From the NCBI GenBank assembly GCA_958009085.1, contig OY253675.1, positions 1,054,001 through 1,118,000 of the forward strand: DNA of 64,000 bases, given 5' to 3'. The stretch comes from Protoeuglena noctilucae. Lineage: Eukaryota. The notes beneath the pieces were generated by a model. It saw only the letters and a list, made by a program, of their open reading frames with translations, had not been told where the DNA came from and ran no database searches. Both the position numbers and the translations under genes were made by a program. How positions within the stretch are numbered: position 1 is the first letter of the stretch; every line of letters begins with the position of its first letter. Positions 28,284-57,164 of the stretch are shown in pieces.

Positions 28284-29792
28284 TCAGGTCATCGCTGTCG
28301 TGAAGCGGCACCACAGAGGAACTTCACGAACGGGTTGATAACGATGTCGGCCACCTGTGGGCGAGGTAACGGCGCAAGTGTAATTTAATTGCCCCCTGGG
28401 GCGGGTCTGAAGGGCCGGGAGAGAAGAGCAGGTCAGGCACAGGACCGGGCACAGGCAAGTATGGTCAGGCGATGGGCGGAGGGCGGCGCCGTTGCCGGGC
28501 ACCGGCTGCTCACCGGGTTGATGGGCAGCGTGTCCGGCTGCTTCCCAATCGCCCTCTCTCGCGGCCGCCCCTTTGGGCGAGGCTCCGTCAGAGACGTGGG
28601 CTTGTACGTGTCGCTGTCCACGAAGTGCACCCACGCGTACTTAAACACGTGCAGTGCGTCGTCAGCCTTGGCGAGGAAATCGTTGCGAGCCTTCCTGTTG
28701 GCCAGCAGGGCCGCGACGCTGGCTTGGAGCGTCCGCTTTTCACGAACGACGCTGATGGCCGTGTCGATGGCCACGCCATCAATCCCCTCGATGTAGTCGC
28801 AGCCGGCGAGCACGGCTGCGATGCGCATCATGTCCAAATTGTCTTCCTTTTTCTCCTTGCGGAAGATCCCCTTCCGAAAGGCTGCCGGGTCGCACTTGAA
28901 GAAAACATTAGTGTCAACGGTGTCCTGCATTCATAACTCAAATTTGTGCGGAGTTTGTCGCAAACAGCGGCCCGAGCGGCGTGCGGCACCGTGTCCACAA
29001 AGCCCCTCGCAGCACACGCCCGCAGCGCAGAGCACGTCCCGTCCTCACCTCCAGCAAGACGCACGGGACGTCGTACAGGAGCAAGTCCGAGTCGGTCGTC
29101 ACGACAGCGGCCACTTGCCCCGTCTTCGCCAGGTACGCGAGCTGGTGGTCCGCCTCGTATGGCGCTTCCATGCACTCCCAGCCCATGCCCCTGAGCTTCT
29201 CCGCAACTTTCTGTCCCAACTCCCTGAATGACCCCTTGACCTTGCGCTTCGGGTAAACTCCCCGCACCGCCCACTCCGCGCAGACTTTCCGCTCCGCCCG
29301 CTCCGCGCGGACTCGCTCCTTGGCGGGGAGCTTGTCCCCATCGAACACGAAGATCACGAGCTTTTCCACCTTGACGCCTTTTCGCTTGAAGATTTGTGCT
29401 TTCTTCGCAAGAAACTGCGATAACATGCACGATGACGCGTTTCGGTGGATTAAAAGCCCAGCGCCCGGTCGTGAGGACGCGTGCAAGGCGCGGGGCGCAC
29501 GGAGCCCTCCTTCGGCCAGCGCGCACCTTGGCAAGCGCCTCCGCCTCCTGGTCCATGCTGAGTCGAGATCCTGAAAGCAGCGCCGGCCAATTTCATTGCG
29601 ACGCGTGAGCCGAGGGGTGAGCACGGTCAAGAAGCACACGTCGCAGCAACGGCGCACCCTGTCCCCCCCCTCTATCCCGCGCTCACCACGTAGCGTTTGA
29701 AAGCCCATGAACATCCAAATGGATGCATCCACCGCGACGCGCCCGACATTCACGGCTTTAATGTCAATTTTTGTTGAGTGTTCCTTGGCCAT
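28284..29792 (-). CDS. EXO1/XPG(FEN1)-family 5' nuclease, copy A (5' end abnormal)
   Basis: 'VAVDASIWM', 'FVFDGDKLPAK', 'APYEADHQLAYL', 'TTDSDLLLY', H3TH 'LAGCDYIEGIDGV'. No in-frame ATG precedes the N-terminal GV. Last exon uncertain. Confidence 0.85.
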
Positions 29793-30231
29793 CCTGGCCA
29801 AATTTCGCACCCCCCCCCCCCCCCCCGCGTAGTCACGATCATCTTTCCACCGTAAAAGGGAGGAAGATTGACGCTTTTTGTCGCGTAGCAAGGCTAGGCG
29901 CTTAACCAAGTGCAGAGCGCGCCAGTGGGACGCCAGCACACCTCCGCAGGGCATCGCAGCCCTAGCTCGCCCCCACCGCATGAAGCAATGCGCGATGATC
30001 CTGTCGCATTCGTCCCTTTCACTCGCACCCCAGCACACTCTCTCTGCTCCCCGCCCAGGGCGACAGCGAGTCTTGCAGGCTTTGCCAGTCTCTGCAGTGC
30101 TTACCTATGATCTCAGTCGTGGCATAACGCACTGTGCAGCATTCAACGAAGAGCCAGTCGCCCCAACCTGCAGAAGCGGCGCAGCACGTCCCGCATGCGC
30201 CTCACGACAGCACGAACTATGTGCCCAGCAC

Positions 30232-32455
30232 TCAATCAGTGTTCGACAGGTCAGGCACCCGCGGTCGCTCGTCCAATCTCAACATCGGCCCTTCCGCCTG
30301 CAACTGTTGTGGCGGCCCCACCGCACTCCTGCTCTTGCGCCGGGGCTGCGACCGCGACGCGGAGCCACGCAGCGCAGGAGACGCCACCGACTCCCGCGCC
30401 CCGACAGCCGCCGGCGCAGAGGCGGGCGCGGAGGCGGGGGCCTCTCGCTCCGTGGCCGCCGCACGGGGCGCGGGAGTGACGGGCGTGACGGGGGTCGTTA
30501 ACTCTCGCCTCGCCCTCGCGGCTGCCCCGGGGGACGGCGCGGATGCAGCCGCGGGTGTCGCAATCGGCGTCCGGGCCGAGCTGATCTGGCGGACCAGACC
30601 GGGCATGCGGGGCGGCCTCTCGGGGGAGCGAGGCGATGCAGAGCCGGCAGAGCTGTCGTCATCTGTGGACGCAGACGTGGTCGCCTCCCCCGCCCTGGCT
30701 GCCCGGCTGTCCCTGCGTGGCTGGGCGGTGCTCGTCTCGGCCTGGCGGGTCGTCGTGGGTGCAGTCGCGTTGTTGCTGGTGACTGACTCTGCCCTCGCCA
30801 CTGCAACTGCCGGCTGGCGCGAGGGTGAGGCCTTGGGCTTAGCGGCGACTGGAGTGGTGGTACCAGTGGCAGCAGAGGGGCCCTGCGGTGGGCAGGAAAG
30901 GTTTGGACAGGTCTTCACAACCGACGTGGACCCGGTGCCAAGTCATGACGGTGCACGACGACTAGCCACCGCTTAACCATGCACATAAACAACTTGCGAC
31001 CCACCTCGCCACCCCCGCCACGGCTGCGGCCCTCCACGACACCAACCGGCATCGCAGTCTCCGTCGCCCCCCCGCTCGACCCCTCGCCCACCACCTCAGG
31101 ACCGCCGTGCTCGCCATGCTCGCTGTCGCCGACGTGCGTGGCCTCCGTGCGACTCTCAGCGGCCGCCGGGCTGCTGGGCCGGGTCGGGGGCCGCACCCCA
31201 ATTAGATCCGTCCGCACTGGCTCGCTCGGATGGGGCTCCGTCAGGTGCCGGGGCTTGCCGTCCTTGCCGTACACCCACGCGTACTGGAACACGTACAGAG
31301 CATCACGTGCCCTATCGAGGAACCGGTCCCGCGCCTCTTCACGGGTCGAGGGCGGCGGCGGGGAGGGGTCGTCCGGGATGACGTACCCTTTGCTCAACAG
31401 GTGGTCGAGGCTGCGTTCGAGCGTCCCGTGATCGCGAACGGCATCCGTGGATCTCTTGAACCCCACTTTCTCGAGGCCCCTCACATAGTCGCAGTTGTTG
31501 AGCACGGCCGCAGCGTGCATCATCTCCACGTTCCTCTCGTTGCTCTCTGCGCCAAAGAGCTCCTCCAGGAAGGCCGCCGGGTCGCACTCCTTGAAGATAC
31601 CGTGGTCCTGTAAAGAACGCAGTTCGTGTATGGCAGTTGTCATCTGCTCACAGCCTCTCATCCGCAGCACGCACCCGCATCAAAGCACGTCCCTCACCTC
31701 CAGCAGGACGCACGGGAGGCCGAACAAGAGCACGTCCGAGTCGACCGTGGCGACGGCGTCGACTTGCTCCGTCTTCACCAGGTGCGCGAGCTGGTGGTCC
31801 GCCTCTACCGGTGCCTGCTCACAGCGCCAGCCCTTGCTCTTGAGCCAGAGCCTGACCCCCTCCGCGACCCCCTCTGGCAGCCTGACTTTTTCCGTCTGCC
31901 GCTCCGCACGGACCCGCTCTTTGAGGGGGAGCTTGGCCCCGTCGAACACAAACTTCACTGCGCCTTTCGCTTTGGCGCCATCTCGCGTGAGGTCGAGCGC
32001 TGCAGATTGCAGCCTCTGCGTTGATATACAGGGTGACGCGTTTCGGCGGACTCACGCGCAGCGCCAGGCACGAGAAGAGGCGTGCAAGGCGTCAGGCTCC
32101 GCTTTGGCCCGCACGCACCTCAGCGAGCGCCTTCACCACCTTCGCTGTCTCCTCCTTGCTCCATGAATCCTCTGAAAGCAGCGCCGAGCAGCAGGGGACA
32201 TTGTGGCGCGTGGCTGGAGCGCGCAGCTTGGAGCACGGTAGTGGGGGGTGAGCACAGCTGCGAAGCCCGACCGCAGCTGCGCTGGAGCTACCCAGCCCTG
32301 CGCTTACTTTTTTCAACCCAAGATTTGTTGGCCTTGAACTTCTTGTACATCCAGACGGACGCGTCCACGGCGACAGTCCCGACGCCCACGGCCTTGTTGA
32401 AGTCCCTCGTCGTCGAAGACGCTTTGGCATGCTTGGCCAAATCCTTGACCCCCAT
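30232..32455 (-). CDS. EXO1/XPG(FEN1)-family 5' nuclease, copy B, with long disordered C-tail
   Basis: 'MGVKDL', 'VAVDASVWM', 'FVFDGAKLPLK', 'APVEADHQLAHL', 'TVDSDVLLFG', 'NCDYVRGLEKVG'. First three intron positions match copy A. Confidence 0.87.
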
Positions 32456-36705: not shown

Positions 36706-36895
36706 GGTCCAGTGCCTAGAGCTGCGCGGCTTGTGCGAGGTCCGACGCCCCGTTGGTACTCGGAGGTAGAGGAACTGCCGGGCGAATGCGGGTGTCAGCG
36801 TAAACGTCGCCACGGGCTTGCCAGTGGACGCAATTTCCGTGCCAGAGCGTGTCGCTGGGGAACATCGGGAAAACCCGGCGATTTGACGTCACTCG

Positions 36896-37011
36896 GATCA
36901 GAAGGATCGCGGGAATCACTGGATTCATCCCAGTGATCCCCGGGAATCGCCGGGATCATCCCCGTGATCCCGGCGATCCCCGCCACTGCCGCAGTGATCC
37001 CAGCGATCCCG
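36896..37011. repeat. Left subterminal repeat array (GGGATCATCCC-nnTGATCCC units)
   Basis: ggattcatcccagtgatccc (36921), gggatcatccccgtgatccc (36952), and further (t/c)gatccc copies to ~37010. Confidence 0.85.
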
Positions 37012-37554
37012 GGCCGCGGCCCTGACGCGCGTGCGCGCCCCCGCGTTTGCTCAGGGGGCTCGAGAGGAGGCGGAGAGACCGCACATTTGCTAGTTGGTGC
37101 TAATGACTGCCTCGGAGGCCCCTCTCGCGTCCTAAAGCTTGCTCCAGCATGCAGACGGGGGCCGTCGACGCATCCGGGGTCCGCTTCCCCTGCGCCGCCG
37201 CTGTTCAACGTGAGATGTTTATATCTATGCGATGAGCGGGAGCTCGCGGGCTCGCCGGGCCCCCGGGGGCGCCGGGGAGGTCCCCGTGCTCGACCAGGCC
37301 TACCGCCGCCGCGGCCGCGATCGGGCACGCAGCGCTTGGCCTATGGATTGAGGTGACCTAAATCTCGCTAGCTGCGGCGCCTTTGCCGGCTACGCCGCAC
37401 GGAGGTGGCTGCTGCATGGGAGGTGAGCCGTCCCCGCCGTCATGGCGCTGCGGATGGGGGCGCGGGGCTGGCTTCGGAGAATTATCTCGATACAGATGAC
37501 ATCGCCGGCGTCGGGGACCTGGCACCGCGAGCATCGGGGAGCTCCTGGGGTCAC

Positions 37555-40500
37555 CTACTCCTCGCCGCCGCTGGCGTGGTGCTCCCAGACCTGCTGCACG
37601 TGGCCGCAGTGAAGAAGCTTCCCAGCAACTTTCACGGCGTGAAGCTGCCGCCGAAGGTTGCGGAGGGGCACGCACTTCAGAGCCTCGCCCTCCGCAGGCT
37701 CCAGGAGCGACAGCTGGGGAGGCTGCAGCGCTCCCAGGTTGGTGTAGAACGACAAGCACTGGTTGGACAGGTACCTCAGGTCGCATGGGGCCCTGTGCAC
37801 CGGGGCCACCAGGGCGCAGAGGAAGGTCCCGGCACCGGAGCTGGTCTTCGCCTCAACCCCGCACACGACCCTGCCCGTCTGCAGCGTGCCCCTGTCCGGG
37901 AGGTACTCGACGAAGGACAGGGTCTCGTCGGTGGCGACGATCCTGGCCCGGTCCCCGCTGGCCGTCCCGATCTCGACCGTGGAGGTCAGCGCGACCTCGC
38001 CCAAGACGTGGCAGGGAAGCCCCGCGCCCTTGAGGGCGTTCAGGAGGTCCGCCTTAGAAACGAAGTCTTCCGCGCGTCCCTCGCTGCACAGGTCGTTCTT
38101 CTTCAGGACGGTCTTCACGCCCTTCACTTGGTCCTCGGGCTGGGACGGGACCGGCTGCTCCGCCCTCGCCCGGCTCTTGATGACGGAGGCCGCCCTCTGA
38201 GAGATGACGCTGGTGCTCGCCTGCGACAGGGCTCGGGGGTCAGTCCAGCGCGGCTCAGCATGGCACGCGGGTCGAGCGCCGTGCGACCGCATCGAGACGT
38301 GTGAGTCGCAAGAAACGCGTCCTGCGTGGGCTTCCCCGCGTCGCCTACGCTGGGCGGCGCTTCTTGCCTGTACCTGCACGTCGCCCTTGCCGTTCGTGCG
38401 CGCGTTGGCAATGGGCTTGTGCATGCGCTCGGCGTCGTTCATGCTGCCCAACATGATGGAGCCGTTCCTCGCCACCACTGCAGGGAAATGCGAAAGCGCG
38501 TGGCACTTCTGGCTGTTCTCGATCTTGCTGAAGAGGGGCTTCTCCGTGCGGACGATTTCGTGGCCACGCAGCAGCGTCTTGAGCACGACCTGCGGCGACA
38601 CGGCAGCGACAAGGCTTCCAGAGTGAGTAAGGGGCAGCGAACGATGGGGCTGGTGTTGGAGAAGGCCTCACGTGGAGGACCTTATTCAGCTGCGCGTCCG
38701 CCGCCTGCGCCCCTGCGATGGTGGCGCTCTCCAGGGACCATTCGGCATAGAGCTGAAGGCATGCCAGGGCTACGGCCACGAGCCCAGCCCTCTCGTCGTG
38801 CACGTCTTTGCTGCCCGTAGGCTCTGCAAGGGATGTGGTGGTGGGGAAACACTCCCGGGGTTCCCCGGCCCGCATCGCGATACCCGCAGCTCCTCCCGAT
38901 GCCCTCGCAGCGCTGACTGTCGGCCTCGCCTCGAGAGAAGAGCTCGACGAGGGCGAAAGGCAGAGCTTGGATCAAGAACCTCGCCTCGTACGCCTTTATC
39001 TTCCCAAACGGGTCCACGAGGCTCAGCACGATCTGGAAGGTCTCGCCCCACGGACGGGCGTGGATCCATGCCGGGGCCTGCGCTCCACCCACACGACGAT
39101 GGACATGCCAGGTGAATACCGAGCAGCTGCGGCGCCACTGCAGGCAACGCACGCCATTGCCTGACCTGCAGCTCACCTTGGCATCCGCAATGATCGATGC
39201 GAACGCAGCCAAGAGGGCGTTTGCCTTTGTCGCAGACTCTCCCGCTGCCGCGTTGTTGTAGAGGACGGTCAGTATGCAGAAGGGAACAGTCTTGCCCAAC
39301 ATTCCCAGTTCCACGGTGTGCATGGGGTCAGGTGCTTGGCCCTGATACAAGTCCGACCCGAACTCGTCCCAGTACGACAGGGCAGGAACCACAGGATGAA
39401 TTTTGCTCTCCCTGGCTTGTTCGTTGGCCCTGGCCGTCCCCACGTCCCTCCTCAAGCGCAGGATGTGCTGCACCTGGAGGCGATGCAGCGCGACGGTGCG
39501 AGGCGTGCGGCAGTCATCCTGGAGGCACAGCGGGCACGACCTGACGGCCAGCGTGGACGAGTTGGCCATCATGACGTTCAGCTGCGCCGCCAAGACGGGA
39601 AAGACGATGACTCTCCCGACGTCGGGGAGGGTCATCCACACCCCACCGGACCTCGCCACGCCAATCAGCTGCCGGTCCACGGCAGCCAGCCGCCGCTGGA
39701 TGGCCTCTCTGTTGTTCAGGTCTGCCTGTGACCCCGGAGTGATCCCGGACACCTGCGGGGGCCTCGAGCGACAACTCATACACGCGGCGTGGTGGTGGAC
39801 GTGTGGGCTGCAACGCCGGCAATCCTCCTCTCGCCTTCATGGACTCGACGGTGGCCACGGTTCGCGGCGTCCCTGTCCTCACGGCCTTGCAAGGCGACAG
39901 GAGGTGCATGTGGATGGGCGTCGTCGATGCGCCCTTGGTCATCTCCACCCCGTCGATGCTGTACGCGACGGGCACGAGGAGCAGCCGGGCGTGCAGCTCG
40001 GGGCGGACTTTGCCAGCGACAGCCTCGGCTATGTCGCTATACCCCTTCGCCCGGGAGAAGGTGAGCTTCTCGTGGATGCTGGGATGCGTCTCATGTGGTC
40101 TCGCCCGCGCCTGGCGTGACCGTTCCCGTGCCTCGCTGAAGTCTCGCATCAACTTAACGAGCGTCTTGGGCTTGATCTGCTCCGCGTGCACCAGCATGTC
40201 CCTCAGCACCGTTATCGTTTGGTAGATGATGGTTGTGCTGCCCTCCTCTTGCAAAACCTGCAGGCCGTGCGTGCACTGGTTGGCGTCAGCCCCCTCGGCC
40301 GCGTCCGAGGCCCTCGACACAAGCGGCACCGCGGCGTGACGCACCTCGTACTGGCCATTGATGCTGTTGAGTGAGGTGTGGAACGTGCGGTGGGAGCGCC
40401 CGAGGTCGAGAAGGTCGTCGCGGATGTCGGGGCGCAGCTTCACGAAGCAATCGAAATGCGCTGCCGTCAGCGATGCCATGAACTGCGCCCCTGCTTCAAG

Positions 40501-41058
40501 TTGGCTCAGGTACTCATCGTCACTGTCCCTGCTCCTGGCCCGCCATGCCTCCAGGTCCTCCGGCAGCTTCAGCGGTTCGTACTCCCCGGGCGCAGGAAGG
40601 TAGGAGACTCCAGGAGCGTCCTCTTGGGGCGCATCATGCGCTCCGGCGCTCTCGGGCGGTTCACCCCTCTCCGAGTCAATGTCCACGTCCATGTCCACGT
40701 CCGTGTCGGCGTAGTGGAGCCACGCGAGTCCTACATCTTCGCTCTCGCCATCACTGCCCGCAGCAACGTCCGCCGTCCCGTCTTCCTCCCGCAGTTCTTG
40801 GTCTGGTCCCGCGCTGGCGCTGTCGCGTGCCAGCCCGTCCGAGCCTCGCAGAGACGGAGAGACATAGTGTTCGTGTGGGGCGGCGGGGCGGGGTGCTTCC
40901 TGGCGGCTCTCCTCGCCATATCTCCAGCCCCACAGCGCAGGGCATCTTTGCTGATGCCGGGCGAGCTTGGCCGGGGTATCGAATTGCGTTCCACACGCGT
41001 CGCATTCGAGCATGGTGAGCTGCAGCGCAGGTTGCGATGCAGGGTTCAAGGCGGGCAT
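37555..41058 (-). CDS. Plavaka-like DDE transposase with N-terminal C2H2-type zinc finger (~7 exons)
   Basis: 'CDACGTQFDTPAKLARHQQRC', 'VAYSIDG..TPIHM', 'GRVIVFPVLAA..CPLC', 'APDPMHTVELGM', 'KCHALSHF..G..AERMHK..TN'. Motif order matches Plavaka/CACTA-related transposases. Confidence 0.8.
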
Positions 41059-42274
41059 GGTGAGGGCGTGGAAGCGGAGGTGAGGAAAGTCCAGCGCGCG
41101 CTCTGTGGGTCAGGCAGGCTCAGGGGTCGTCAGTCCTCCAGGCAAGCGGGGGTGGATTGCAGGGCTGCAGCGACAGCACCGCGCACAGGCGAGGCTCGGC
41201 GCTGCTGGTGCGAACAGCGCTGGATCATCGTCCCTCTCTAGGGTGAGAGTGCAGCCTGCTGCTGAGCCATCTGCGAGGTGTGCTGACGTGGCTGGGGAGG
41301 GGAGGGGCCAGCTCCCGTGAGGTGAGATGCAGCATACGCATGACTAGATCAGGTCGGACATTGTCGCTGTCCCCGAGGTGCGCGGTTGGTCTGCTGCGCT
41401 ACCGGTGGGGTCTGCGACACGGTCAGGTGTGCAAGGGGGGGTTGGTTGGCTGGGAGGGACGAAGGGCTGGTCCGCCAGCGTGGTATCTCTGTACTTGCTA
41501 ACTGTACCTGGCACCGTGCCTGCACTCTCTCACCCCGAGACTGACTCTAACTTCGCCTAACAAGCACGCAGGCGCACGTGCCACCTCGTCCCAAGTTCCG
41601 GCGCTGGTCGGGTGCTGGCCGGGCCCGCCATGGCTCGTCCGCCGACCCATGCCCCTTGTCTGTCGTCTGGCGTCCGCGGCGCCCCGCAGCGGTGGTCATC
41701 GACTCCTGGGGCGGCCGTCGGCACGGCGGAGTCGCGCACGCCACCATCTCCCGAGTGCCTGGCCCGAGTGCCGGAGCGCCGCTCCCCGATGGAGCGGCAG
41801 CGTCCGGAACAAGCGGTCGGTGCCTCTGGCGGTGGTCGCTGCGCGCTCCCGTCGCGCCTGCGGCCGCCCGAGTCCGGCTGCATGTGCGTGCATGAGTGCG
41901 TTGCCTAGAGCGTCACGGATGGTCATGTAACCTCGGCGTAGGGATTGAAATACCAATAGCTACGCTAGGGAGCGATTACGGGCCGAACGGAGCCCCCCGG
42001 GCCGCGCGGGCCCCGGAGCGCGTGTGCCCAAAAGATGCGTCCGATCGCGATCCAGATAGGTCTGATCGCGGCCGAGAAGGAAGATAGGCGGCGGGATAGC
42101 CTCGGCTAACGCTTCCGGCGCCGCTGCGCTCCCGAGTGGGCCCCGCTCCCCGCGATCCCCGACCACGACGAAATGCCGCGAAACTGCTCCCAGCGGCCTC
42201 TCGCATCCCGGGTGCGCCGTGGCCGTAACCGCGCCGCGTAAAACGGCCTCCCCAGGGAGATCGGGCGCGCGGCT

Positions 42275-42404
42275 GGAATCACTGGGCTCAATGAGGGTTT
42301 ACATTACAGTCTGTGTCGTCAGTGGGATCACTGGGATGATCCCTCTGATACCCCGGGATCAGCGGGATGATCCCCACGATTCCTGGGTATCACGGGGATG
42401 ATCC
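42275..42404. repeat. Right subterminal repeat array, inverted relative to the left array
   Basis: gggatcactgggatgatccc (42324), gggatcagcgggatgatccc (42355), gggtatcacggggatgatcc (42385); period ~30-31 bp. Confidence 0.85.
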
Positions 42405-42690
42405 TACTGACGCCAGACTCGCGGTTTTCCCGATGAACGAGCTGTGACGTTTCACCGCCGCCAACCCACCCCTCCAGTCCTCCAGCTGCTTTGGAATTTG
42501 CCGCTAGTCGCAATTCACGCATCAGTCGTAGCAGCTGCGAACAAGCCCCACGTCGCCGTGTGGCGGCTGTCGCGACATGGCAGCTTTGGCCTGCGACCCT
42601 GCGCTGCGACCGCGTGTGTTTGTGGGCCATCCTCACGCCCACGCAAGCCCGACTTGCCCAATTGCGATCGCGGCGCGGCGCGGCCGCCCC

Positions 42691-43843
42691 ATGGCACTGT
42701 GGCGCGTGTTGCCCGGGCTGCGCTGCCGGGCGCCGCGCGCGCTGGCCACTGCGGTCGGCTCCGTTCCCGTCGACATCTCCGTGGATGACGAGAGGCGAGG
42801 GGCAGCTCGCCTGTACGTCCCCGCCGCACCGCGCCTGACATACCGCTTAGGGTCATCCGGTTTTCCCCTCGCCGCCCGCAGCCCGGGCCGCTTCTTTCCC
42901 TACCTGGACAATTTCACGGTCGGTCCGCACCACATGACGGCGCGGGAGGTCCTCGGGCGCGCGGAGCAGTTCGTCAGCCGCGAGCGTCTGGCGCGCTTCC
43001 ACGCCGTCGCCTCCGAGCGGTGTTTCTCCGTCGTTCCCGTGCTGGAGGGCCTCCACGACGTGGGGAACATTGCTGCGGTGGCGCGAAGTGCGGACGCATT
43101 GGGATTTGGCCGCCTCCACGTCATCCAGGGTAATGGCAAGTACAAGCGCAGCCACCGCTCCGTCAGCGCGGGGAGCGACAAGTGGATACACATGGGAGTG
43201 GCCGAGGTGCGTCTCGTCGCTGCTGTTCTAGCCGTTGCCACCTGGCCACCTCGGCGCCCACGCTGACTGTGCATGATGCAAGGCCATCTGCGCCCCTGTG
43301 ACGCAGGACACCCGGGAGGCGTTTGAGGCGCTGCGGCGCGTGGGGTACCGCGTGGCAGTCACGCACCTGGGCCCCGGCACCGTCGACGTGCGTGACATGG
43401 ACTTCTCGATACCCACGGCCGTGGTGCTGGGGAACGAGAAGGACGGGGTGTCGCCCGAGGCAGTGGAGCACGCGGACGTGCGGTGCGCCATCCCCATGGT
43501 GGGCTTTGTTGATTCGTTCAACGTCAGCGTGGCTGCCAGCCTCGTCATGTGGACCGCGAGGCAGGACCGCGCCGCGCGGCTGGGGATGGCGGGAGACCTG
43601 GGGCCGGAGGAGGCGGAGGTGCTGGCGGCGGCCTTTGCGCTGCGGCACCACGCAAGGGTGGGGAGCTGGATTGCCGAGACGGCGTCGCGCGCGCGGCCGG
43701 CGTTCCGGCGGCGGCGGCTGGCGGGCGGGGGGGCGGAGGAGGACGGGGGCGGGGAGTGGGAGGGCGATGAGGGGGCAGAGGAGCTGCTGAGGGATTTGGC
43801 AGCGAGCGCGGGGCTGCGACAAGGGGGCGGGAGGGGTTGGTGA
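42691..43843 (+). CDS. SpoU/TrmH-family tRNA/rRNA 2'-O-methyltransferase
   Basis: 'VLEGLHDVGNIAAVARSADALG', 'SAGSDKWI', 'VVLGNEKDGVS', 'IPMVGFVDSFNVSVAA'. Confidence 0.92.
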
Positions 43844-51090: not shown

Positions 51091-52243
51091 GGCCAGTCTT
51101 CACGACCGGCTTGCATCCGAAGGGCCTCGCGCCCCGGACTCTCCACCGCTGGCCCAACGATGGCACGAGCAAATCGATGCTAGGGATATCAATGAGATGA
51201 GCTACAGAAACGCTAGTATCAGTGGAAGGATACGCGACAGCGGGCCCTGCAACGAGGCGCGAGCAAAATGGCCCTCACGCCAGCTCTACGGGCCCAGGAG
51301 AGTGGTGCGGAACACATGCGATCACAGCGGCATGAATCGTGCCATGTGGCTCCCTGAAATCCCCTGCCTTGGTTGCCTGGGGCTTCCCCCGCTCTGACAC
51401 AGCTCTGAGCGACTGATGTGGCCTGTGCGCGCACCGCAGCCGGCCAGTGCTTGTCGCGTAACTATGGCCGCGTCGTGCCGAGCCCACGCGCCAGTCGCCG
51501 CGCCCTTCGCGCGGGCGGGGAGGCGCTTCTCGCCCGCGCCCGCGCAGCTGGGGCACCCGGAGGCACGCCCGCACCGGGTGGTCGCCGTCACCGACGTCTC
51601 TGCGCACGACGGCCGGCACGGGAGGAGGGATGTCTCCGCCGCGAGCACGTCGGGCATGAATGGGTCGGGTGAGGACTTCCGGCCAGCGATTGCAGGCTTC
51701 GGGACCGCAATCGTGGCGTTTGTTGCCGGATTGGGCCACTCGCCAGCTCGGCCTCGACGCCCGCTTCCCGCCCGGCCCGGACTCCGTGCGACCCATCGCC
51801 GGGGGCAGCCGTGGCGGGAACGGCTGCGCGGCCGCGTGCCTGGCTTTCGAGGGAGGTTCGGCTGGGGTTCGGTCCCGCTCAACGACGGCCCGTTGGAGGC
51901 CCGGGCTCCGAAGTTCTGGCTCGGGACGGTTCCCCGCCTTTTTCGGCCCCCCGCGCGCGGGAAGGGCCTGCTCTCGGCCTCCGCACGAGGCCCGACCCTG
52001 TATGCGCGCACCGGTGTCGGCCTCCGTGACCGCGAGCGCCCGGAGACGCTGGGGGACGCTGCTCCCGGTCTCCCTCGTCTCGGGGGCGCCGGGAAGGCGC
52101 GGGCGGGCCTTGCGGATGGTTCCCTGGGCATGATCGCCGCAATGCGATGTTTTGGGTCCCTTAGATCCCGCAAGCGAGCCGAAGCGTGCGCGCATGGCGT
52201 CGGGAGAGCTGCTGCCCCATCCGCTCCCGGTCCCGTCGCCCCG

Positions 52244-54627
<2,384 letters not shown>

Positions 54628-54953
54628 AGGAAGGGCCGCAGCGACGACGGAGGCGCGACGAGCGGCGCCGCGCGAGCACATCGCTTGAGAAGGATTTTCT
54701 GGAGGTATTCTGACCCCTGCCGAGCCCTGTTGAGGAGGCGTTTTTCCGAATGTGTGTCTTTCCGTGCGTGGCGCTTTTCCGACCCAAATGCGCCACGTTC
54801 CCAGTCTCCTCTTCCCCCACGCGAGCCTCTTTCCGCTTCCCTTCGCCCCCGCGCCCATCCCTGCCCGACGCGAGCGCGAGCGCGGTTTCAAGTACACTAC
54901 CAAGCCTTGGCAGCCACGCCATCGTCACAAACTGGCTGGTCCGCCTGCCCCGC

Positions 54954-56838
54954 TCATGACTCGACCGGCTCGTCCACCCGCCCCGCCGCCACCGCGTCCC
55001 GCCACGTGTTGGGCATCCCCAGCTCGTCTGCCGCGTCCGCATGCCACAGGTCCTGTGGATCGGTCGACCAATCGGTGCATGGACTGTCTATGCACATGAA
55101 AACCACATGAGCACGTCCATACATCCCATCCACCCCACCTCACCTGGAAGAGGACGGTGGAAAGATACCTCTCCCCGAAGCTGGGGAGCACCACGACGAT
55201 GACCTTGCCCTCGTTCTCGGGGCGCGACCCGATGCGGACGGCCGCGGAGACGGCGGCGCCCGAGGAGATGCCGGCGAGGATGCCCTCGTGGATGGCCAGC
55301 TCACGCGCCGTCTGGGGGGAGAGGAGGGGGTATGGGTGTGGGTGTGGGTGGCAGTGTGGGTGTAAGTGTGGGTGTGGGTGTGGTTGCAGTGATGCCGCCG
55401 GACTGGGAGACGGGTGAGTGGGTGTGGGTGTGGGTGTAGATGTAAGTCTGGGTGTAAAGGATGGGGATGCCCTCGTGGATGGCCAGCTCAGCGCCAAGAC
55501 CACCACCACCAACCCTCTGCTCTCACCTGCACGGCCTCGGGCGACGACACCCGCACCCCCACCACCACCACCACACCACCAATCCCCACCCCTCACCTGC
55601 ACGGCCTCGGTCGACGACACCCGCACGACCTCATCAATGAACTGCTCCCTCAGCACCCTGGGCTTGAACCCCGCCCCGATGCCCTGGATCTGGTGGTACC
55701 CGGGTTTGCCCCCGGACAGCACCGGGCTCTCCTCCGGCTCCACCGCCACGAACTGACACGAGGGCCGCACCGGCCGCACCGCCTCCGCCACGCCCGTGAG
55801 CGTGCCACCCGTGCCCACCCCCGCCACCACCACGTCCACCAGCCCCGCCGTGTCCGCCAGGATCTCCGGGCCCGTCGTCAGCCGGTGCACCTGGGGGTTG
55901 TGGGGGTTCTGCGGAACAGGCGATGGGGTGGGTACCCATGTCATATCACGGCTTGCCATGATTAGAGAATTGTCAGTCGACACTGCGACAGAGTCAAACG
56001 ATGGGAACAGAGAGACTTGGGAACCATCGCCTCCGCGGCGCATCCCCAGCCCCTCGCCTCGAACTGCTGCAGCATGTAGGCGTTGGGCGTACTGGAGCAA
56101 ATCTCGTTCGCCTTGCGGATGGCCCCGTTCATGCCCAGGCGGCCGTCCGTGAGGACCAGGTCGGCCCCAAAGGCGCGGAGGAGCACGCGGCGCTCGCTGG
56201 ACATGGTGTCGGGCATCGTGAGGATCAAGCGGTAGCCCTTGGCGGCGGCGACGAAGGCCAGGCCGACGCCCGTGTTGCCGGACGTGGGCTCCACGAGGGT
56301 CGTGCGGTCGGGGGAGATGAGGCCGGCGCGCTCGGCCTCCTCCACCATGCTGAGCGCGATGCGGTCCTTGACGGACCGACAGGGCTCCATCAACTCGAGC
56401 TTCGCGAGGATCAGAGCGCGGCTCCGGCGCGTCACGCGCGGAGAGAGCTTCACCTGCGCGCGGCACGAGCAGGGGGCGCCTCGCGGCGCCGCAGACGCGG
56501 CAGACCGCCAGCGGCAGGGCGAGAGGTGCCACAGTCACTGTCAAGCAGCGAAGGCCGTCTGCGATCGACGGGGAAAGCGAGACGCGAGCGCGGCGCACCA
56601 GCGGAGTCTTGCCGACGAGTTTGGTGATGTCCTCCGCGATACCCTCCACGAGGTTGTCTCGAGAGAAGCGCTGGGAGTTGATAGCCATCACACAAGTGTT
56701 ACTGTGCCCCCGGACCAGGGCGCCCGGCCGCAGGAGCGCGAAGGGGCGCGTCTCCATGCACGTGGGTCCGTGCCGCGGCCCGGCGGGGCCATCGGCTTGC
56801 ACCCTCAGCCCCCTGATACAGGACATCGATTGAGCCAT
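54954..56838 (-). CDS. OASTL: Cysteine synthase / O-acetylserine(thiol)lyase
   Basis: 'GKTPL', PLP-lysine motif 'SVKDRI', 'EPTSGNTG', 'GVGTGGT', '[10 protein letters not shown]', '[13 protein letters not shown]'. Several in-frame ATGs (56688-56838). Confidence 0.95.
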
Positions 56839-57164
56839 CCTGCCCCGCTCTCTGGTCCCACGCACGGGCCTGAATCGACGGAATCGCGCCAATCCTCCCT
56901 ATGGGCGGGGCTGGAGTGATGCCTAGCCGTTCTCAAAATCTGTGTACAGAGGATAGTGGCATCTGCGCCATCATCGGGCTTTGTTACTTCTCTGACGGTG
57001 GAGGCATCCCCCGCACCGCTCTGAAAGTTAGCTGGAGCCGCTTTAGAGTCCCATAGTGACTTCTCGTACTTCAAAACACGTAGCGAGACCCGACTGGTGT
57101 GTAGAATCGGGCGCTTTCGCGGGGCAGCGTGCGGACTGGTGGGGGGGGGTCGTTGGCGGGCTCC

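Follow-up and report, generated by a model that had tools for sequence, protein, structure and literature searches.

The stretch of DNA analysed here (the window) comprises 64,000 nucleotides of Protoeuglena noctilucae (assembly GCA_958009085.1, contig OY253675.1, positions 1,054,001 to 1,118,000), and all coordinates below refer to it. One transposon copy of 5,573 bp occupies positions 36863–42435 in the DNA of this GC-rich marine alga. Its ends carry inverted repeats and, just inside them, arrays of short repeats, and one gene with introns lies between the arrays on the minus strand. The element is a young cut-and-paste DNA transposon and probably belongs to the Plavaka lineage; its termini are most like those of PlavakaB. 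For comparison with the window, we use contigs of four public runs (X9, X10, X15, and X16; marine metagenome is among the run labels). The features at the two ends are as follows.

36861–36862 (unstranded): AA of the left flank, a putative target-site duplication of 2 bp; in run X10, AA also stands before the element at a second locus.
36863–36875 (plus): left terminal inverted repeat, perfect over 13 bp (CATCGGGAAAACC) and imperfect to about 36901; a contig of run X9 starts at 36863.
36910–37010 (unstranded): left subterminal array of GGGATCATCCC and GTGATCCC units with a period of about 31 bp, from repeat finding.
42319–42404 (unstranded): right subterminal array, from repeat finding; a GGGATGATCC unit recurs every 31 bp, at 42333, 42364, and 42395.
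42423–42435 (minus): right terminal inverted repeat, perfect over 13 bp; the match of the X10 contig ends at 42436.
42436–42437 (unstranded): right flank AA, putative target-site duplication, from the window sequence.

The two terminal repeats found by the repeat finder match at 13 of 13 positions and are 100% complementary. The left end reads ...GCTGGGG-AA-CATCGGGAAAACC..., and the right end reads ...GGTTTTCCCGATG-AA-CGAGCTG.... The window contains two exact matches to CATCGGGAAAACC, both at the element ends, and four matches with up to two mismatches, where 1.22 are expected. In a gapped alignment of the left end with the reverse complement of the right end, the likeness extends past the 13 perfect bases. 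It spans two indels, of 2 nt and 1 nt, and continues as far as ...GGATCA, with about 32 of 39 positions alike. Beyond about 39 bp, both ends enter blocks of GGGATCATCCC-N-GTGATCCC. The repeat finder also reports longer imperfect pairs just inside both ends (60 nt at 78% and 58 nt at 81%), and Tandem Repeats Finder reports arrays with a 31-bp period at 36910–36971 (2.0 copies) and 42323–42404 (2.7 copies). GGGATCA or its complement occurs 11 times in the window, and nine of these occurrences lie within the element. The subterminal units are likely transposase-binding sites. AA stands directly outside both ends, the three-base flanks are unequal (GAA versus AAC), and there is no flank repeat of 7–8 bp at the element ends.

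By base-composition arithmetic, chance alone would give about 0.3 perfect inverted repeats of 13 bp in 6 kb, and about 8% of cases would show a 2-bp flank match. The 13-mer repeat and the flank match are therefore not significant by themselves, and would not be convincing if they stood alone: a non-mobile host gene with several exons could be flanked by such a repeat by chance. This explanation is extremely improbable in view of the public contigs. A 5,647-nt contig of run X10 spans 36861–42436 with eight differences in 5,576 nt, and a further 70 nt are unlike the window. The foreign left flank leads into the same AA and then into CATCG, so that a different flank joins the element at the very base where it starts in the window. 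In run X9, a 5,527-nt contig has position 36863 as its first base, and the contigs of these two runs break at the repeat ends. In addition, the k-mer depth in X10, which is not a copy number, is 9.67 for the element and 2.3–3.4 for the flank contigs, and matching subterminal arrays are present at both ends.

The X9 and X10 contigs carry identical differences from the window copy (99.86% identity). The same left boundary thus recurs in no fewer than two genomic contexts, and the copies of the element hardly differ from one another, indicating that the element is mobile and young. The preliminary description of this DNA had reported perfect 13-bp terminal repeats that start with CATCG and are imperfect to about 38 bp, an AA duplication, resolvable ends, and a recent insertion. 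The alignment of the ends, the AA that recurs left of the X10 copy, the contig boundaries in X9 and X10, and the eight differences in 5,576 nt bear out these four points. The flanks show no coding periodicity within about 700 bp of the element, which suggests an insertion between genes or in an untranslated region. As a side observation, 30 letters of the flank at the other X10 locus have about 47% G+C, whereas the window has about 66%; this might place the second copy in a region of lower G+C, but the stretch is too short to conclude.

The copy number of the element appears low. No further copy or fragment is found in the window by blastn or tblastn, and patterns of 25–26 bases from the ends have no match in viral contigs and none in genome contigs. 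A degenerate 16-base end pattern, which is too short for this purpose, gives at least 118 loci in a metagenome scan, and none of the 118 matches listed fits the element.

The coding part of the element is on the minus strand. Long stop-free stretches in different frames cover 39514–41109, 38682–39836, and 37555–38667, with a shorter one at 38345–38971. Strong periodicity of the G+C content at third codon positions (GC3) tracks the frame of each stretch, and GC3 reaches 0.87–1.0 in the last exon. We enumerated frame-preserving GT-AG and GC-AG introns to join the stretches. The resulting product has six coding exons and five introns, is 977–988 residues long, and has no internal stop. Exons and introns are listed from the 5' end of the gene.

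39883–41058 (minus): coding exon 1, 392 codons from the ATG at 41058–41056, with a zinc finger, an acidic low-complexity stretch, and SIDG; from frames, periodicity, and a weak zf-C2H2 match.
39753–39882 (minus): predicted intron 1, GT-AG, 130 nt (GCC/GTGAGG...CCGCAG), from enumeration; an alternative acceptor gives 157 nt.
39177–39752 (minus): coding exon 2, with the putative second catalytic codon at 39575–39573, C-x2-C, H-x5-H, and MHTVE with the putative catalytic Glu; from motifs.
39078–39176 (minus): predicted intron 2, GT-AG, 99 nt (AAG/GTGAGC...GCGCAG), in frame and stop-free; retention, as in the database protein P0004, adds 33 residues; from frames.
38930–39077 (minus): coding exon 3, which may reach 38884; from frames and periodicity.
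38824–38929 (minus): ambiguous zone of intron 3, for which enumeration gives GT-AG at 38883–38811 (73 nt), GT-AG at 38917–38824 (94 nt), or GC-AG at 38929–38824 (106 nt).
38672–38823 (minus): coding exon 4, with its 5' edge at 38823 or 38810 depending on the choice of intron 3; from weak periodicity and intron enumeration.
38590–38671 (minus): predicted intron 4, GT-AG, 82 nt (CAC/GTGAGG...CCGCAG).
38374–38589 (minus): coding exon 5, 72 codons, with KCH..SH and ERMH motifs; from frames and periodicity.
38221–38373 (minus): predicted intron 5, GT-AG, 153 nt (CAG/GTACAG...TCGCAG).
37555–38220 (minus): coding exon 6 including the stop at 37555–37557, 221 codons, GC3 of 0.87–1.0 over most of its length, no known domain; from frames and periodicity.

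The element thus contains one minus-strand gene with introns. A single gene with about six introns, at least two of them GC-AG, had been claimed. The open frames and the GC3 periodicity agree with the single gene. The number of coding introns is five, although a further intron in an untranslated region is possible, and a model with GT-AG introns throughout exists; a GC-AG intron competes only at intron 3 and is needed nowhere. No accessory gene (TET/JBP or PAG) is found in the element.

The public proteins raise the question of strand. Three database proteins predicted from public contigs are shorter inside than the window sequence would give: one internal segment is missing from each, of 124 nt in P0001 and P0003 and of 288 nt in P0004. 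The missing segments have the borders AG/GTGAAT...GTCGCAG and GA/GTGAGT...CTCGCAG on the plus strand, with a few ambiguous junction bases, and neither fits a minus-strand intron.

38622–38910 (plus): antisense intron, 288 nt, GT..AG, absent from P0004; from comparison with the window.
39110–39233 (plus): antisense intron, 124 nt, GT..AG, with bounds ambiguous by a 3-nt CTG at both edges, absent from P0001 and P0003; from comparison with the window.

The junction in P0001 and P0003 shifts the minus-strand frame, and that in P0004 keeps the frame but skips predicted exon 4. It is very unlikely that two deletions would by chance both show GT..AG borders on one strand, and we therefore read the source contigs of these proteins as spliced antisense RNAs of the plus strand. 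These two introns are the only splice evidence in the element. Among the contigs examined, none shows a minus-strand intron spliced in RNA, and the long X9 contig, from an RNA library, is unspliced. One could accordingly take the plus strand as the coding strand, with its spliced RNAs as the real product and the minus-strand frames as by-products of GC-rich sequence, in which long open frames arise on both strands. We regard this as very improbable. The plus-strand frames (37372–38304 and 40375–41241) have no family match, whereas it is the minus-strand frames that contain the finger, the D-D-C(2)C-E order, and the signals resembling Plavaka; with five short GT-AG introns taken out, these frames stay free of stops for 2.9 kb.

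The spliced minus-strand model contains putative transposase motifs. In order, these are a C-x2-C-x12-H-x3-C finger with a weak zf-C2H2 match (E 0.062), an acidic low-complexity stretch, SIDG with the putative first catalytic Asp (residue 369), LN-V-MMAN (residue 452), C465-x2-C468, H482-x5-H488, and MHTVE with the putative catalytic Glu (E540). By motif inspection rather than alignment, these motifs include an Asp-Asp-Glu (DDE) triad, whose second Asp is Val in the window copy, and C(2)C stands after this position and before the Glu. The CMCT clade comprises EnSpm/CACTA, Mirage, Chapaev, Transib, and Plavaka. In excerpts of Kojima 2025 (PMC12730594), the region from the second Asp to the Glu of CMCT transposases, those of Plavaka included, is described as holding C(2)C and H(3-4)H.

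Three of the eight differences between the window copy and the X9 and X10 contigs lie in coding exons, and all three change the residue (A/V, V/D, and N/H). The V/D change is at position 39574, where the coding strand of the window has T (GTC, Val). The codon is GAC (Asp) in each of the three runs with coverage there (X9, X10, and X16), and the proteins P0001, P0003, and P0004 also have Asp. The residue is number 452; it closes a hydrophobic, strand-like segment and precedes C-x2-C by 13 residues. From this position, which is where CMCT transposases place it, residue 452 is likely the second catalytic Asp. With Asp replaced by Val at this putative catalytic residue, the window copy most likely encodes an inactive enzyme. 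The preliminary description had called the element structurally complete, which is apt for its DNA and less so for its product. If the catalytic assignment is right, the window copy depends on sister copies: its ends are intact, and it could be moved by their transposase.

The termini point to Plavaka. According to the excerpts of PMC12730594, PlavakaB is defined by termini 5'-CATCA..TGATG-3' and duplications of 2–3 bp, whereas the PlavakaA definition gives TGT..ACA termini with duplications of 2 bp. In the excerpted supplement, fungal Plavaka ends include CATCGGGGCAAATCC, CATCACGAAAAC, CATCAGCAAAAC, and TGTCGGAAAAATCC, with 2-bp duplications of varied sequence (TA, GA, AA, GG, and TG). The termini of the present element are CATCG..CGATG, and one fungal PlavakaB consensus in that source also begins with CATCG. 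By our own count, 10 of the 13 terminal bases agree with two other PlavakaB consensus ends. The element therefore presents CATC-type termini as in PlavakaB. It also has a 2-bp flank duplication as in PlavakaB, and this second agreement is statistically weak with a single complete insertion.

The protein evidence points the same way. Scans against Pfam were made with single exons only. The Plavaka family (PF18759) matches P0001 and P0003, which are fragments of exon 2 from sister copies, with E 0.0083; the match is colinear (residues 33–152 against positions 198–317 of the 325-position profile), and Plavaka is the only transposase family touched in Pfam. In the ESM Atlas, 18 of the 30 nearest clusters of exon 2 are Plavaka and three are Transposase_21, with a score of 0.94.

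Elements of other superfamilies were considered and rejected. EnSpm/CACTA does not agree with the CATCG termini, the unequal 3-bp flanks, and the lack of a PF02992 match at E≤10. The lineages that duplicate TA (Tc1/mariner, pogo, ESTA, and PHISTA) are excluded by flanks of AA. The KDZ group (Kyakuja, Dileera, and Zisupton) has duplications of 7–8 bp in the excerpts of PMC12730594; there is no such flank repeat here and no KDZ match in Pfam. For hAT and others, the length of the duplication does not fit. We consider it likely that the element belongs to the Plavaka lineage and has PlavakaB-like ends. The assignment follows from the termini and the 2-bp duplication, the sub-threshold PF18759 match, the Atlas neighbours, and the order of motifs, whereas the other superfamilies fail on the duplication.

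Several results weigh against this assignment. The PF18759 match scores 15.8 bits, below the curated cut-off of 26.3 bits. It is seen only in Asp-carrying fragments, yet not in P0004, which is longer and also carries Asp, and exon 1 and the window's own exon 2 have no PF18759 match; the window's own frames match no Pfam transposase family. A profile search of the spliced protein against the Plavaka and CACTA families had been proposed as a check; in the scans of single exons, PF18759 is touched, below threshold and in two sister-copy fragments only, and PF02992 is not matched at E≤10. The Atlas recognition value (2227) falls short of the range in which Atlas scores count as strong evidence, and no usable match is obtained there with the conserved half of exon 1. 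A phmmer search with exons 2–3 finds no homologue beyond the element itself among 1.84 billion representative proteins. It returns P0001, which is 98% identical and is the element itself, and P0002, a tandem-repeat artefact of 1,780 residues that is matched in 22 stretches and is spurious. Word-indexed searches of longer proteins with exon 2 and P0001 give nothing even at E≤10. The His pair H482-x5-H488 exceeds the published H(3-4)H by one residue, and a third His lies in MHTVE. The catalytic role of residue 452 is assigned by position and not by alignment. The 2-bp duplication is known from one complete insertion and one left flank. No empty-site joint is found in the four runs, of which X10, X15, and X16 have no contig over 36054–36860, and a piece of X9 (42409–42787) reaches only 27 nt into the element. 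With P0004, a PDB sequence search gives only a chance coiled-coil match (E 0.59), and an AlphaFold2 model made without an alignment is unusable (mean predicted local distance difference test score, pLDDT, 35.2).

These results leave room for one chief alternative, namely a cut-and-paste element of the CMCT clade that is not Plavaka, either Mirage-like (2-bp duplication) or from a lineage not yet named that has CA-type termini and the C(2)C/H..H zinc motif in common with Plavaka. No protein match at any curated threshold, no homologue among 1.84 billion proteins, the deviation of H-x5-H from H(3-4)H, and the three Transposase_21 clusters among the 30 Atlas matches are all consistent with such an element, and CA..TG termini with duplications of 2–5 bp are common to CMCT lineages in the excerpts of PMC12730594. 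However, Plavaka is the only Pfam transposase family touched, and the first 12 bases of the terminus resemble fungal Plavaka ends far past CA (the 10 of 13 bases mentioned above). In addition, an N-terminal CxxCGxxF...H...C finger is also present in two fungal PlavakaA consensus sequences of that source, as translated by eye and not computed. We therefore judge the alternative unlikely, though it deserves to be kept in mind. The Plavaka-like assignment of the preliminary description accordingly stands as the best-fitting lineage, with a profile match that is below threshold.

If the element is a Plavaka transposon, it may work as follows. The transposase of about 980 residues would bind the CATCGGGAAAAC termini as well as the GGGATCATCCC repeats of the subterminal arrays, and its N-terminal C2HC finger would probably make this contact. 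The enzyme would then pair both ends and cut them with a DDE centre of the RNase H-like fold that is stabilised by the C-x2-C...H...H zinc site. Reinsertion across a 2-bp staggered cut would give the 2-bp duplication, AA in this case. With its Asp-to-Val change, the window copy would most likely supply an inactive enzyme, and its intact ends could still be moved by the transposase of a sister copy. The element would also be transcribed in antisense, and the antisense RNA would be spliced at the two canonical plus-strand introns.

The closest known elements are PlavakaB of Agaricomycetes (PlavakaB-1_AuCo, PlavakaB-1_AuSu, and Plavaka-11_AB; excerpts of PMC12730594), which share the CATC(A/G) termini followed by G/C-GAAAAC-like bases and the 2-bp duplication. 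In contrast to what is described for them in these excerpts, the present element has no TET/JBP accessory gene, resides in a GC-rich marine algal host, and encodes a protein whose divergence leaves no more than a PF18759 match below threshold, with H-x5-H in place of H(3-4)H. It is also shorter (5.6 kb) than the fungal consensus sequences in the supplement excerpts (about 8–24 kb). Compared with EnSpm/CACTA (maize En/Spm, Transposase_21), it shares subterminal arrays, a CA start, and a DDE core whose second Asp is followed by C(2)C, but it lacks CAC..GTG termini, a 3-bp duplication, a PF02992 match, and a second, TnpA-like gene.

The premise that Plavaka elements are mainly fungal is outdated. 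In the parts of these reports available to us, Plavaka is described from red algae, chlorophytes, and streptophytes (PMC13519894), potentially active EnSpm-Plavaka copies are described from Auxenochlorella (PMC12633428), and giant Plavaka elements are described from the red alga Bostrychia moritziana (bioRxiv 10.1101/2025.02.11.637652). Likened by description only, the Auxenochlorella elements and the red algal, chlorophyte, and streptophyte candidates share algal hosts, potentially active copies, and insertion polymorphism with the present element. The Bostrychia elements, placed in EnSpm/Plavaka by transposase homology, terminal motifs, and duplication length, are described in the same preprint excerpts as 17–19 kb long, with three accessory genes (PAG1-3), making up about 36% of the genome and mostly degenerate. 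The present element, in contrast, is 5.6 kb long, has a single gene, is apparently of low copy number, and has nearly identical copies. Since Plavaka is already known from algae, the element is a new member and not a new kind. Among the literature matches listed for Plavaka, none is on marine phytoplankton.

Other features of the window lie outside the element. A diverged direct duplication (29008–29549 and 31663–32141, 67% identity over about 550 bp) adjoins an XPG-type nuclease frame at 28938–30104 on the minus strand (XPG_I, E 1.9e-12). Three of the at least 118 chance loci of the metagenome scan (L015, L071, and L082) align with 52448–52630 at 67–75%; this segment is within a Pyr_redox_2/FAD-binding frame (51398–52669, plus strand), indicating that it is a conserved nucleotide-binding motif region unrelated to the transposon. 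A large cysteine synthase exon is at 54925–56898 on the minus strand (PALP domain, E 1.7e-22). Its closest relatives are metagenome proteins, followed by plant and green-algal proteins at 45–73% identity, and no near-identical named protein is present in the collection searched. These relatives are compatible with a host alga of the green lineage.

The finding does not change what is known of how such transposons work. What it provides is a compact reference for Plavaka-type elements in a marine alga: a copy with one gene, precisely defined ends, subterminal repeats, and a duplication of 2 bp. At the putative catalytic site, the Asp and Val variants found in nature can serve directly as an active and an inactive control. 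The nearly identical copies in several independent runs point to activity that may be ongoing, and this makes the element useful for the study of transposon dynamics in ocean populations. A bolder reading, which we hold only tentatively and think rather unlikely, is that a currently active and very divergent Plavaka lineage is spreading in natural marine phytoplankton, with a transposase past the reach of sequence searches, yet with a terminal CATC-N2-GAAAAC and an N-terminal finger that are near those of basidiomycete PlavakaB. If this were true, the module that recognises the ends would have been conserved for a very long time or would have been transferred horizontally between distant eukaryotes, and the spliced antisense transcripts would be part of the control exerted by the host or by the element.

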